The notes under the pieces are model-generated. The model was not told where the DNA came from and did no database searches. It was given only the letters and a program-made list of their open reading frames with translations. Shown piece after piece: positions 37,101-39,798 of a stretch of DNA of 64,000 nucleotides; position 1 is the stretch's first letter; each line of letters opens with the position of its first letter. The position numbers were made by a program, and so were the translations under genes. The stretch lies in the NCBI GenBank assembly GCA_964551445.1, contig CAZKCG010000014.1, positions 38,689 through 102,688 of the forward strand, given 5' to 3'. The stretch comes from an uncultured bacterium. Lineage in GTDB: Bacteria; Muiribacteriota; UBA9980.

Positions 37101-39735
37101 CCGAAAAAACACCTTTTCGAGAAGCGTTTTCAGAGATCTGAGCTTTCGCGTCCTGCATCTTCCGCTCGCGCGCGCCCGGATCGGATCCGGCGTCCGGTTC
37201 AAGAGCCGTCGGATCGGCATAATATACCGTGATATCGTCTTTAGTGCCCGCCCTGCCGTCAGGCCCCTTCGAAAACACGACGCCCCTTTGAAAATCGAGT
37301 TCATATCGATTGCCCCACGGATCTTTCAGCGTATCGAGATTCGTCAGGTATTTCCCCTTCAGTTCCTTCATGAATTGATCCCGAACCTGGCTCCCTTCAA
37401 GATAATTATATTTCTGAACAGCCTGCGAAAAGGTGTCGCAGTCCTGCCTGGCCTTTGTCGATTTAGCGTCCTCCGTCATAGCGGCGAATTGAGGCATGGA
37501 GATCGAAATGATAAGGCCGAAAAATAAAAGGACCGCGCCGATCTTAACGAGATCAACGGAATCTATGACCACGCCTGCCGCGTATCGTATTGCGGCCAGC
37601 AGGCCAAGGACGGCGGAAGCGGCTTTTTCGATCCCGTAATAAGACGCGTACGCGAAAGCTCCGAAAAAAGCGAGCATAAAAAGAAACATCCAAAAGAGCC
37701 AGAAATTATCGGAATTCCAGATATCGGAGAGCGCCAGAATAATATTGACCGGGATCTGATAGACCACTGGAAACGGCGCCGACTGTTTCAGTCCCGGACT
37801 TCCGTTCAGATCGAAGAAAACGAATCCTTCCGGAACGAAAATGCGCCATTCAAAGGCCATCATCGGAAGATCGACCCGGGGCATTTTTATTTTGAACAGC
37901 CCGAAAGATCTTGAAAGTTTATCTATGTCGGATGACGCTTTTATTTTAACAGGAAAGTCGCAGACCGTTTCGTTTTTTATTTCCGATCTTATAATGGGGA
38001 TCCTGAAGTTAGACGAAATATCGGCGGAAGTTTTAACCGGCCTCAAATTAACGTTGGATTCGAGGATCTCAGTGGTGCCGGACGGGATCAGCTTCAAAAA
38101 CGGCATGCCGTTATTTTTCATATCGATGGAAATTTTCGATACCGCGCTTCCGTCGGGTGTAACTACGGTATTTATGGACGATCCGCTTATTATCGTGGAT
38201 AAGGCTTCCGCGTCAGAGTATCTGGCGAGGGCCAGGGCGGCTTTATATGGATGCCTGAAATATTTGAAAGCGTAAAGCACCGGCGAAACTGTCGAATATC
38301 TCATATCCTCCGGCATTTCATACGCGTCGATGCGCTCTAAATTAAGCGGGTCTTCTTTAATGTCGATGCGCATGTTTGAAAACGCGCTGACGGCGATATA
38401 ACCGCGCTCATTTTCAGCTTCATGGACGCAAAGTTCCGGAACCACGGTTTCTTTTGAGCCGGCGTCAATTTTCGAGGCCGTCTTTAAAATAATTGAAAAA
38501 TCTCGATCTGAAGCGGTTTTTAAAATTATCTCAACGGACGATCCATTTTTCAGATCCCTGACGAAGAGCTTTTCAAAATTATCAGAAACAACCTCGTCGA
38601 TCTCCATGCCCGCCGCGAGGCCAACTGAAAATTTAGCGATTTTACCTTTAATGATCTTAAAATTTATTTCGTGCTTTCCATTTATCATTTCATCCCCGAA
38701 AGAAAACATAGTATTAACGGAGCATTTGAACGCCGGCTGGACCTCGTCAATTTTCACTTTCCTCGTATCTTCCGCTCCGGCTTGTGTCCCGAAGGCATTA
38801 ACTAATGCCGCTTCCCGCGTTTCATCCGCCTTAACTTCGGCCTCCGCCGATTTTTCCGCGAGTTTTTTTTCTTCACCGGTTATCGTTAAATAAGATATCA
38901 AAAGAGCGTCGGAAACGCCGAAATGACCTTCCATGGCCTGGTTCCCCGTCCCGGGATGAGTGAATAACCGCAGCCCCACGGCAGGTTCCATTTTGATCGA
39001 GGCGTATTTTTCGTCGTGCATAAAAACAACCGAATTTTCTGGCGAATTGGCGGTATTTATCCTGAAAAAATTCACCGCGTTACTCTTTTCAGGTTCCACC
39101 ATGAATTTAACTGAAAGCCTGTGATCGCCCCTGCCTTTTAATATAAGCGAATAACCGTTCCCGGTCATCTGGCGATCGTCCGTGGTTTTAAAATCATAAG
39201 AAGTTATGGGTTCGACGATCATTACGGGCGCCGTATCGTCCAATTTCGCGTCCGTTAAAGCGATCTTGCCGCCGAAGAGCGGTAGCGTCAGATAATTCTT
39301 ATCGTTGAAAACCGAAATATCCATGGTCAGATCGCAGAATATATTTTCGCTTTTTTTAGTGAATTTGTACGCCGCTCTTGAAATGATGCAATCCGCCGGC
39401 AGGATCCTTTTTTTCGTTCTCAGCTGTTTTTTATATTTTTCGATCTCATATTTTTCGCTTATCAGTTTGTTATTTTTTTCGGCGAGCTTCAAAAATTCCG
39501 AATAATCGACCTCGACGAGACGCGAATCCTCAAGTCCCATGGTTTCGATCAATTGCGCCGCGTTTGCCGCCGGAACGATCACTTTAAGATCGCTTACCGG
39601 CCTGACCTCGCAGGCATTTATCGCGAGTTCTTCCGCCGCCTCGACGGCGCCGCCCGGCAAAACAACCAAACAACCTGATCCAACGATCAAAAACATCATA
39701 AAAAACACTGAATAAACGGCATTTGTAAATTTCAT
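34114..39735 (-). CDS. Giant (1873 aa) multi-pass membrane / cell-surface protein with an embedded GspG-like pseudopilin domain and a GDKP tandem repeat
   Basis: N-terminal signal/TM. TM clusters near aa 690-760, 900-990 and the C-terminus. The internal segment …ISISMPQFAAMTEDAKSTKARQDCDTFSQAVQKY…LKDPWGNRYELDF…SKGPDGRAGTKDDI… resembles type II secretion / type IV pseudopilin GspG (DPWGNPY…GxDGxxGTxDDI). (GDKP)x5 lies near aa 1400. RBS GGAGG. Confidence 0.7.
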   Translation of the reverse strand: MKFTNAVYSVFFMMFLIVGSGCLVVLPGGAVEAAEELAINACEVRPVSDLKVIVPAANAAQLIETMGLEDSRLVEVDYSEFLKLAEKNNKLISEKYEIEKYKKQLRTKKRILPADCIISRAAYKFTKKSENIFCDLTMDISVFNDKNYLTLPLFGGKIALTDAKLDDTAPVMIVEPITSYDFKTTDDRQMTGNGYSLILKGRGDHRLSVKFMVEPEKSNAVNFFRINTANSPENSVVFMHDEKYASIKMEPAVGLRLFTHPGTGNQAMEGHFGVSDALLISYLTITGEEKKLAEKSAEAEVKADETREAALVNAFGTQAGAEDTRKVKIDEVQPAFKCSVNTMFSFGDEMINGKHEINFKIIKGKIAKFSVGLAAGMEIDEVVSDNFEKLFVRDLKNGSSVEIILKTASDRDFSIILKTASKIDAGSKETVVPELCVHEAENERGYIAVSAFSNMRIDIKEDPLNLERIDAYEMPEDMRYSTVSPVLYAFKYFRHPYKAALALARYSDAEALSTIISGSSINTVVTPDGSAVSKISIDMKNNGMPFLKLIPSGTTEILESNVNLRPVKTSADISSNFRIPIIRSEIKNETVCDFPVKIKASSDIDKLSRSFGLFKIKMPRVDLPMMAFEWRIFVPEGFVFFDLNGSPGLKQSAPFPVVYQIPVNIILALSDIWNSDNFWLFWMFLFMLAFFGAFAYASYYGIEKAASAVLGLLAAIRYAAGVVIDSVDLVKIGAVLLFFGLIISISMPQFAAMTEDAKSTKARQDCDTFSQAVQKYNYLEGSQVRDQFMKELKGKYLTNLDTLKDPWGNRYELDFQRGVVFSKGPDGRAGTKDDITVYYADPTALEPDAGSDPGARERKMQDAKAQISENASRKGVFSVPVNLVKTNTFYLLNKKFVMPDQDIFINISYMTSGSYMLLSAVLVISGLVLPYFLGGAFDFSPRSVLMILAALLIIIIMETVNAYIPQIAKYPQIGLLCGVIFFFTLKLISIVSDPGIYRTFIKILFESGAPAGKAGTDNTRASASETTLAMFIYAAITVSALCAIPSGALAGEFKPDAPGAIELVYNPATLDVQLFQLSDLNRYILKKRSSGVFIKYANLKFLLDSVSAVEKGGVSLKLPEGTAECESLPYKDLVKKMLISAVVTAGHADIDIEYFIDIFDDDYTRVQLFSGNVALTTVESSLIKPFAKTSNDDGRASGTVRILPFKDNYSAVFEGRGEYRVKVSLKTDLASDKDDRYFDLSPGKCPLMMMELRSPAGYDISASGLIIRTQRSDDGTAEVLTSANLVPAGFYRFRLTLQEKIRNEKYKKQREREKRMRVAREEAARSEEVRTMVPKSEPRVSVSSTQILTVEEERFSSVITNNYNIENTMLRELQFDIQPETLITRVNSSAEIYDWKITAAAGDKLGDKPGDKPGDKPGDKPGDKLSEKSGKILTVTFRAPQKGQLSVAIDYERQIADMKKEVNAPWVMPRNADEKKLYIALDSSVNADISVTKTVDLTPIDEREIPGGLKRSALSPVLFSYKTSKFPCSLTLAINKNTDLPSIPCVIDSADYKSFVTKAGYILTRARYQVRNNNVQFLRMRLPANSKTWSLKVGERLVKPARNEEGSVFIPLLKSPLMDNEFRSFMVELVYLTKTAEFENFGAAKFELPRIDVMCSRISWEFYFMDSYQLSGISSNLRLSASAGAVEFMDAGSGKPLSVDEMIAVQQKLKAAYLSGNSPGPGSDQGVVSQGFPAPLMRFGGDAKGFLPVSTEFPELATNALHLSGENLKKSDGFENAPLYFIEFSFYSNKVFEILAFGGYIMGVILAVWAVMAIFKTKRYRRAVIFAAISLIYCLAIFQYNENSMNYLFAGFSMGIIFILAGLAARPAKRGKL
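35458..35534. repeat. 12-bp tandem repeat (CTTATCGCCTGG x~6) inside the giant gene, encoding PGDK repeats in frame
   Basis: Read directly. The plus-strand ORF 35444..35650 translates to LSPG x5, mirroring the minus-strand GDKP x5. Confidence 0.85.
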
Positions 39736-39798
39736 AAAGCGCCTCCATAATTATTTAATTTAAATTTTTGAAAACAAAATTATGAAATTTACAAATGC
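39719..39798. promoter_or_regulatory. 19-bp perfect inverted repeat whose proximal arm covers the giant gene's start codon (loop 42 nt); candidate translational control hairpin
   Basis: 39719-39737 (gcatttgtaaatttcataa) is the exact reverse complement of 39780-39798. On the minus-strand mRNA the arms would pair and occlude AUG-AAA-UUU-ACA-AAU-GC. A third partial copy (tgaaatttaca) is at 39997-40007. Confidence 0.5.

Follow-up and report, generated by a model that had tools for sequence, protein, structure and literature searches.

The window analysed here is a stretch of 64,000 nucleotides (64 kb) from an uncultured bacterium of the Muiribacteriota (UBA9980; GenBank assembly GCA_964551445.1, contig CAZKCG010000014.1, positions 38,689 to 102,688), and the element in question is a perfect inverted repeat that spans the start codon of a giant gene on its minus strand. 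This gene (34114..39735, -) encodes a protein of 1873 amino acids (aa) whose N-terminus resembles a signal peptide and which contains a pseudopilin-like T2SSG domain (aa 754-834). Its product is nearly an orphan: besides 70%-identical orthologues in Wallbacteria-like metagenome-assembled genomes (MAGs), five database hits at 22-24% identity were found, all to proteins of 2300-2600 aa and one of them from Roseibacillus. The protein also shows several hydrophobic stretches and a fivefold GDKP repeat encoded by a 12-nt tandem array at 35463-35532. The co-directional gene upstream (40177..40914, -), which encodes 245 aa without a Pfam match, ends 440 nt upstream and is a possible source of read-through; two terminator-like hairpins follow at its 3' side (39935..40043, -; one at 40043..40027, the other at ~39983..39935). 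The start codon of the giant gene (39733..39735, -) aligns with the start codons of all three relatives described below, and the Shine-Dalgarno (SD) sequence GGAGG (39742..39746, -), 6 nt 5' of the AUG, is invariant in 4/4 leaders.

An earlier annotation of this stretch (the original prediction) had described a 19-bp perfect inverted repeat with 42 nt between its arms at the start of the giant gene, and the repeat search confirmed it: the arms at 39719-39737 and 39780-39798 are 19 nt each, complementary at 19/19 positions (100%), and the 42-nt spacer contains the SD. Read as RNA, the distal arm (39780..39798, -) is GCAUUUGUAAAUUUCAUAA (minus-strand DNA GCATTTGTAAATTTCATAA) and the proximal arm (39719..39737, -) is UUAUGAAAUUUACAAAUGC (minus-strand DNA TTATGAAATTTACAAATGC), and the minus-strand leader is laid out as ...TTGGAATGAGATAT-GCATTTGTAAATTTCATAA-(42 nt)-TTATGAAATTTACAAATGC-CG.... 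The proximal arm consists of 2 nt of leader, the AUG, codons 2-5 and 2 nt of codon 6; the AUG was thus placed correctly in the original prediction, whereas the five further codons said to be covered are four full codons and 2 nt of the next. With loops of up to 150 nt allowed, it is the longest perfect inverted repeat of the window, as compared to a maximum of 17 nt in 200 first-order Markov shuffles, and even with 3 mismatches allowed, the 64 kb contain no second copy of the 19-mer. The repeat is thus genuine and exceeds what chance would give. A third, partial copy, also noted earlier, was recovered by the repeat search: the 11-nt core TGAAATTTACA (minus strand UGUAAAUUUCA) lies at 39997-40007 (-), between the two terminator-like hairpins, giving three exact copies of TGTAAATTTCA inside 290 bp. 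The probability of this third copy by chance is ~0.01-0.02 by a rough estimate, which is marginal, and the copy is not present in the leaders of the relatives.

The comparison was based on an alignment (A5) of four independent leaders, namely those of the window and of L001, L008 and L009, which are Candidatus Wallbacteria-like MAGs or contigs. The orthologue with 70% identity was obtained on MAG contig L001 in one genome scan, and the only protein-database relative of the N-terminal part (L003, under the NCBI name Candidatus Wallbacteria) is the same sequence as L001. The short contigs L008 and L009, found via homologues of the 245-aa protein, span the 245-aa gene, the leader and the first part of the giant gene, whereas L010 and L011 carry the 245-aa gene and not the leader. 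Exact-protein look-ups with the giant protein and the upstream gene gave no further relatives, nor did metagenome scans with protein alignment and with the conserved upstream DNA block. The 245-aa protein shows 70-82% identity and is syntenic with the giant gene in three lineages (window; L008 105-842; L009 56-790); in L001 a response-regulator/PAS/histidine-kinase gene is found in its place. The window is the most divergent member, with protein identities of 60-63% to the others as compared to 72-77% among the others, and the leaders are 63-72% identical, a divergence of ~33%. Several explanations of the repeat were rejected. Insertion of a mobile element or MITE was ruled out, the region being colinear with the three relatives and shorter in the window than in them. 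An assembly artefact is unlikely, since relatives assembled independently are colinear over the 80 nt. A duplication footprint, offered as an alternative in the original prediction, does not fit because the region is colinear and the differences from the relatives fall on both arms. An intrinsic terminator or attenuator received no support from the scan; a 42-nt loop and a weak U-tract are unsuited to it.

Folding calculations were carried out for RNAs with different 5' ends. The 80-nt hairpin alone has a folding energy of -26.3 kcal/mol, and the leader of 116-131 nt folds at -31.9 kcal/mol (z = -4.2 to -5.0). The opening cost, defined as the energy needed to force positions -18 to +16 around the AUG open, was 24.0 kcal/mol for the ribosome site of the giant gene when the distal arm is in the RNA, against 3.1-12.0 kcal/mol for 32 other open reading frame (ORF) starts in the window, i.e., twice that of any other gene. 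These computed values support the earlier claim that an RNA carrying the distal arm would bury the AUG. They modify the claim that the SD is left free in the loop: it does lie within the 42-nt loop, but the minimum-energy fold pairs the SD stretch UGGAGGCG (39747..39740) with the U-rich anti-SD UGUUUUCA (39769..39776, -) inside that loop. In long transcripts an outer-helix strand, GAAUGAG (39803..39809, -), is predicted to add 7 bp with 39717..39711 and to extend the fold-back into the -24 region of the promoter-like element described below. In these models it is the 5' end of the RNA alone that sets the opening cost, which amounts to 16-17 kcal/mol for 5' ends at 39900-40010, 23-26 kcal/mol at 39798-39850, 13.4 kcal/mol at 39790, 10.1 kcal/mol at 39785 and 8.5 kcal/mol at or below 39783.

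The original prediction had likened this architecture to RNA thermometers, in which the stem would melt with rising temperature and free the AUG. The likeness to ROSE, fourU and other thermometers consists in an AUG, and by prediction also an SD, paired within an AU-rich helix of the 5' leader, which would hold here if the distal arm is transcribed. However, the helices of known thermometers are short, imperfect and labile, opening at physiological temperature, whereas the present stem consists of 19 perfect pairs without bulges or mismatches, and in the computed melting profile the AUG is paired to at least 97% up to 65 °C and still to 91% at 75 °C. Since this profile shows no melting below ~75 °C, a thermometer is excluded in practical terms and we give it hardly any probability. 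Moreover, no credible Rfam 15 match was obtained at E values up to 10 in 39000-41000, only a tRNA reaches the gathering score when the whole window is compared to Rfam, and the lower 12 bp of the stem are not conserved in the three relatives.

The two best-conserved non-coding blocks of the four leaders both lie upstream of the SD. Block (i), TGTGTTAATTTGCAGTGGAAATGWTGCAATTTGC (39885..39923, -), contains, at 39895-39914, the dyad TTGCA-N10-TGCAA, ~100 bp 5' of the second block. This dyad is conserved in 4/4 leaders, does not recur in the window and may be bound by an enhancer-binding protein. Block (ii), TGGAAYGRKATATGCA (39811..39796), has an invariant GG-N10-GC in all four leaders and corresponds in the window to the sigma-54-type -24/-12 element TGGAATGAGATATGCA (39796..39811, -), with GG at 39810-39809 and GC at 39798-39797; together with GG and GC, 12/16 positions of the element are invariant. 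Sigma-54 promoters carry GG and GC at -24 and -12, and transcription starts 12 ± 2 nt past the C of the GC (PMC2831329). Because the GC of the -12 element is also the first two bases of the distal arm, the transcription start predicted from this geometry (39783..39787, -) falls inside that arm. The original prediction had named a start between the two arms, which would leave the distal arm untranscribed, as a refutation of its reading; by the geometry of the element the start is probably at ~39787-39783, inside the distal arm, so that this refutation probably applies. The observation itself is confirmed and its interpretation supported in part. The position of the promoter is narrowed down by L008, where a terminator-like, perfect 15-bp hairpin with UUUUAU behind it (932-969; -29 kcal/mol, z = -5.5) leaves only ~20 nt before the GG; the promoter must accordingly lie at the -24/-12 block. 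This hairpin also sits between the dyad and the -24/-12 block, so the terminator of the first gene falls within the control region of the second.

The resemblance to known sigma-54 promoters extends to the TGG and TGCA flanks of GG-N10-GC, to the dyad ~100 bp upstream and to a gene with a sigma-54-interaction domain in the same genome; a difference is that the window element, a promoter predicted here from sequence, has three mismatches to TGGCACG-N4-TTGCW (A at -23, T at -21 and A at -15), as compared to two in the relatives. The exact derived pattern has only 2 matches in the 64 kb, both intergenic and correctly oriented. The second, TGGCATGGTTTATGCT (11984..11969, -), is found 3' of the gene of an enhancer-binding protein (12340..14748, -) with Sigma54_activat (3e-67), AAA lid and HTH_8 domains as well as response-regulator and PAS domains. 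Two GTTCCAATAGTGGAAC palindromes (12145-12163 and 12247-12265) lie directly 3' of this gene and precede the site, and the site in turn is ~70 nt 5' of a small ORF and a CheW/CheW/MCP/CheA cluster; the region looks like an activator gene beside its target promoter. By itself the match of the leader element to the consensus is weak; it is strengthened by the invariant GG and GC, by the rarity of the exact pattern, by the surroundings of its second occurrence and by the L008 hairpin. A further sigma-54-like sequence, TGGTGCGGATCATGCT, was seen 57 nt 5' of the ATG of the distant homologue P0002 (L005 2930-2945), and both its distance to the ATG and its ATGC variant of the -12 element resemble those of the window. 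Two sigma-70 candidates were rejected: the one at 39884..39857 is not conserved, and in the one at 39807..39779 the -10 sequence CATAAT becomes CGTGAT in L001, where the pairing is kept via G.U.

The relatives share only part of the stem. Its top 7 bp (UUCAUAA : UUAUGAA) are paired in 92.9% of cells across the four leaders and the anti-SD helix of 8 bp in 93.5%, the latter without covariation, whereas the lower 12 bp are paired in 60% of cells and reach 100% in the window only; shifted-register controls for these helices gave 40-50%. Accordingly, the last 7 nt of the distal arm (UUCAUAA) are kept in the relatives and its first 12 nt pair in the window lineage only. The same 5' element has another partner in the relatives, AAAUUAUGAA(UAUU), located directly before the SD; together they form a helix (P1) of 14 bp that is perfect in L009, of 10 bp in L008 and of 7 bp in L001, where it includes three G.U pairs and a compensatory A-U to G-C change. 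Overall, 86% of P1 cells are paired as compared to 36-49% in shifted controls, and in the relatives the helix is conserved approximately from the predicted +1 onward. In the window, 10-11 nt of the P1 3' arm are missing (a gap in columns 179-189 of A5); what is kept is CAUAAUU:AAUUAUG, in which the remnant AAUUAUG (39746..39752, -) would, in the short transcript, be paired with CAUAAUU (39784..39778). The 19-bp repeat is thus a rewiring specific to this lineage: the former partner has been cut down to this remnant, and its place has been taken by the region of the start codon. Where the window differs from the three relatives, the differences are interleaved on both arms (distal positions 4, 5 and 12; proximal positions 13, 18 and 19; both partners of the distal 11/proximal 9 pair), and in the window each sits in a Watson-Crick pair. 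Since the window is the outgroup, gain and loss of the lower 12 bp are indistinguishable in the four-leader set, and covariation statistics are weak with four sequences (131/500 and 54/500 shuffles). The opening costs of the relatives are 5.9-15.8 kcal/mol. That the repeat is a general trait of the gene family was rejected, as the starts of three distant homologues (22-24% identity) are free of such a repeat and have ordinary opening costs (4.8-7.8 kcal/mol).

The same comparison bears on the view that the repeat has no function and is a mutational by-product, e.g., of template switching that perfected a quasi-palindrome, perhaps in the same episode as the deletion of 10-11 nt, and tolerated since the gene's own transcript would not contain the repeat. 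Watson-Crick pairing throughout, with no G.U, is typical of copying at the DNA level, and this view would also account for the confinement to one lineage, the lineage-specific deletion nearby and the 7-bp seed of complementarity that pre-existed. However, a single templated overwrite is excluded because the differences interleave on both arms; both arms are ~79% identical to L009 and neither was overwritten wholesale. Since the conserved promoter block keeps the distal GC constant, it is the coding arm that must have been adapted to it, while other pairs required changes on the distal side. Furthermore, 38 nt without a mismatch at a leader divergence of ~33% would imply either constraint or a very recent origin. 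A by-product is therefore doubtful in our view.

We lean, tentatively and short of calling it probable, towards the repeat being a fold-back insulator built into the gene's own promoter, with upstream-initiated RNAs alone forming the stem. Following this, we propose that the promoter at TGGAATGAGATATGCA fires from ~39787-39783, within the distal arm, and that the gene's own transcripts keep the last 4-8 nt of the arm, would form at most a short 5' hairpin and would have an ordinary opening cost (8.5-11 kcal/mol). The whole arm would be carried only by RNAs from upstream, arising from read-through of the 245-aa gene or from spurious starts; in these, the AUG and the next codons would be locked in the 19-bp helix and the SD paired with the U-rich stretch, at a cost of 16-26 kcal/mol, and the giant gene would thus be translated solely from its own activator-dependent transcripts. 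The complementarity of 19/19 over the AUG provides the upstream segment complementary to the initiation region that such an insulator needs. Moreover, adding the 26-nt promoter segment to the RNA of the window raised the computed opening cost by 14.4 kcal/mol, which 0/300 shuffles reached, and in L009 by 6.7 kcal/mol (reached by 1% of shuffles); the same addition changed the cost of 32 other window genes by -4.1 to +2.0 kcal/mol. What the analysis shows is the repeat with its statistics and energetics, the conservation of the promoter-like block and of the dyad, the restriction of the lower 12 bp to one lineage and the change of pairing partner; that the block is a promoter, where transcription starts, that read-through RNA exists and how translation responds are inferences.

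The arrangement has a well-described counterpart in phage T4, where the late promoter of genes e (lysozyme), soc, 49 and I-TevI lies within the DNA encoding the 5' strand of an inhibitory structure (PMC3014915). In both cases the 5' arm of a start-codon hairpin coincides with the gene's own promoter, predicted in the present one; in T4, long transcripts from upstream fold and are silent and transcripts from the embedded promoter are devoid of the arm, as we propose here. By contrast, the promoter of the giant gene is a predicted sigma-54 -24/-12 element and not the T4 late TATAAATA box, the gene is a chromosomal one of 1873 aa in an uncultured bacterium, and the stem is much longer (19 perfect bp). 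Fold-back inhibition in IS10/IS50 sequesters the translation signals of transposase in read-through transcripts (cited in bioRxiv 10.1101/2025.01.24.634351). There as in our proposal, transcripts from outside carry the complement of the start region and the element's own transcripts do not, which guards against fortuitous activation; unlike these insertion sequences, the present locus is not a mobile element, as it is colinear with the relatives and has no terminal repeats or target duplication. Davis, Simons and Kleckner in 1985 and Schulz and Reznikoff in 1991 reportedly placed the start of the IS10/IS50 own transcript inside the repeat.

A number of observations weigh against a fold-back insulator at a sigma-54 promoter. 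On the side of the promoter, a GG/GC match of this kind is expected by chance in 4% of shuffled 200-nt leaders, loose sigma-54 matches are not enriched in the window, the start site is a prediction from the -24/-12 geometry, rpoN is not within the 64-kb window, and the enhancer-binding protein encoded at 12340-14748 (-) has GAFTDA at aa ~570-575 and not the canonical GAFTGA. On the side of the helix, the 19-bp form is present in one lineage only, 19 perfect Watson-Crick bp exceed the need of an RNA helix, and the 26-nt promoter segment adds 5.4 kcal/mol in L008, which is within the shuffle range (11% of shuffles), and changes the cost by -0.4 kcal/mol in L001, i.e., gives no fold-back effect. 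With two terminator-like hairpins upstream, read-through may also be scarce, and a 3-codon ORF at the ATG of the -12 element in 4/4 leaders would be sensible only if the block is transcribed.

This 3-codon ORF, AUG CAU UUG UAA (39789..39800, -), overlaps both the -12 element and the distal arm, and together with the fold of the full-length leader it leads to another explanation, which is the idea of the original prediction minus the thermometer: the start site would lie 5' of 39798, the full stem would be part of the gene's own mRNA, and translation would be off until something opens it. The opener might be a helicase, a ribosome on the mini-ORF, or a protein or small RNA that attaches to the distal arm in an anti-antisense manner of the rpoS type. 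The mini-ORF is found at 2981-2992 in L001, 1000-1011 in L008 and 1066-1077 in L009; it reads AUG-CAY/CAG-NNN-UAA in frame in 4/4 leaders, encodes MHL in the window, MHI in L001, MQN in L008 and MHM in L009, and has an invariant TAA. Its presence in all four leaders is unexplained if the block is a promoter only, and the footprint of a ribosome on it would cover the distal arm. The very stable fold of the full-length leader (z as given above) is in line with such a lock, as is a sigma-70-like TTGAAA-16-GAAAAT (39884..39857) that would give a start near 39850, and the complementarity reaches 5' of the predicted sigma-54 start by 12 bp in the window and by 5 bp in L009. Riboregulated leaders of the rpoS type and unmasking dependent on a leader ORF, as in cat-86, ermC and tap-repA of plasmid R1, are established; as in those, an upstream segment would occlude the ribosome site, a trans-acting RNA or a ribosome could open it, and a short ORF overlaps the arm.

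The differences from these systems argue against a lock in the gene's own leader. The mini-ORF has only 3 codons, its AUG lies within the -12 element and its SD is a weak GGAA ~6 nt upstream. In L008 the mini-ORF is separated from the upstream block by the strong terminator-like hairpin, which it follows at ~25 nt, leaving only ~25 nt for a promoter, and the sigma-70-like site is, as stated, not conserved. Furthermore, 24 kcal/mol on a chromosomal gene, not seen in its closest relatives, would be an odd lineage-specific change. In contrast to the rpoS type, we know of no small RNA for the present leader. We regard this lock as a possibility to be taken seriously, yet on balance an unlikely one. 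If the start site is nevertheless upstream, this would be among the strongest start-codon locks that can be built, and something must open it.

The arms may also act as DNA, either as operators of a regulator, which binds them and the third copy and loops over the promoter, or as crossover sites of a recombinase that flips the 42 bp between them. The three exact TGTAAATTTCA copies fit this idea, perfect arms are typical of recombination sites and of symmetric operators, one arm spans -13 to +6 of the predicted promoter, and giant exported proteins are commonly phase-variable. However, no recombinase domain or obvious regulator was found among the window ORFs of 150 aa or more, the relatives do not share the motif, its third copy is marginal, all four assemblies show one orientation, and the G.U pairs and compensatory changes in the helix of the relatives indicate pairing at the level of RNA. 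A DNA-level site is thus rather improbable. Its recombinational form, in which flipping of the segment with the SD would switch translation of the giant exported protein ON and OFF, is still harder to credit and we consider it very improbable; such a segment would represent an inverton of the ribosome-binding site. Partial overlap with genes has been described for other invertons (bioRxiv 10.1101/2023.03.11.532203). The 19-bp perfect arms do flank a segment, the 42 bp containing the SD, as the inverted repeats of an inverton would. This distance between sites is, to our knowledge, shorter than any segment known to be invertible.

If the fold-back insulator proposed here is correct, a chromosomal gene of an uncultured candidate-phylum bacterium would use the DNA of its own sigma-54 promoter as the antisense of its start codon, and a gene of 5.6 kb would be translated only from activator-dependent transcripts. 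The logic of such insulators is already documented for T4 late genes and insertion sequences; we know of no case at a sigma-54 promoter or at a giant gene of a cellular organism. The four leaders in addition present a small case of the evolution of a regulatory RNA helix by replacement of a pairing partner, the old 3' arm having been lost and the start-codon region recruited. For genome scans, the locus suggests that start-codon hairpins cannot be interpreted until the promoter has been placed.

Three features elsewhere in the window were also recorded. On the opposite strand, ~1.8 kb upstream of the start of the giant gene, an ORF of 859 aa (41512-44091, +) has Pfam MVP_shoulder (1e-27) and Vault_3 repeat (3e-9) matches; its product is homologous to the major vault protein of eukaryotes, here in a bacterium. 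A probable bidirectional terminator is the 18-bp perfect inverted repeat (8-nt loop) at 52812-52855, in the gap between two converging ORFs, 51013..52791 (+) and 52879..53904 (-). An ORF of 305 aa (33178-34095, +) that is convergent with the giant gene gave weak, sub-threshold hits to a 'histidine kinase in conflict contexts' domain.

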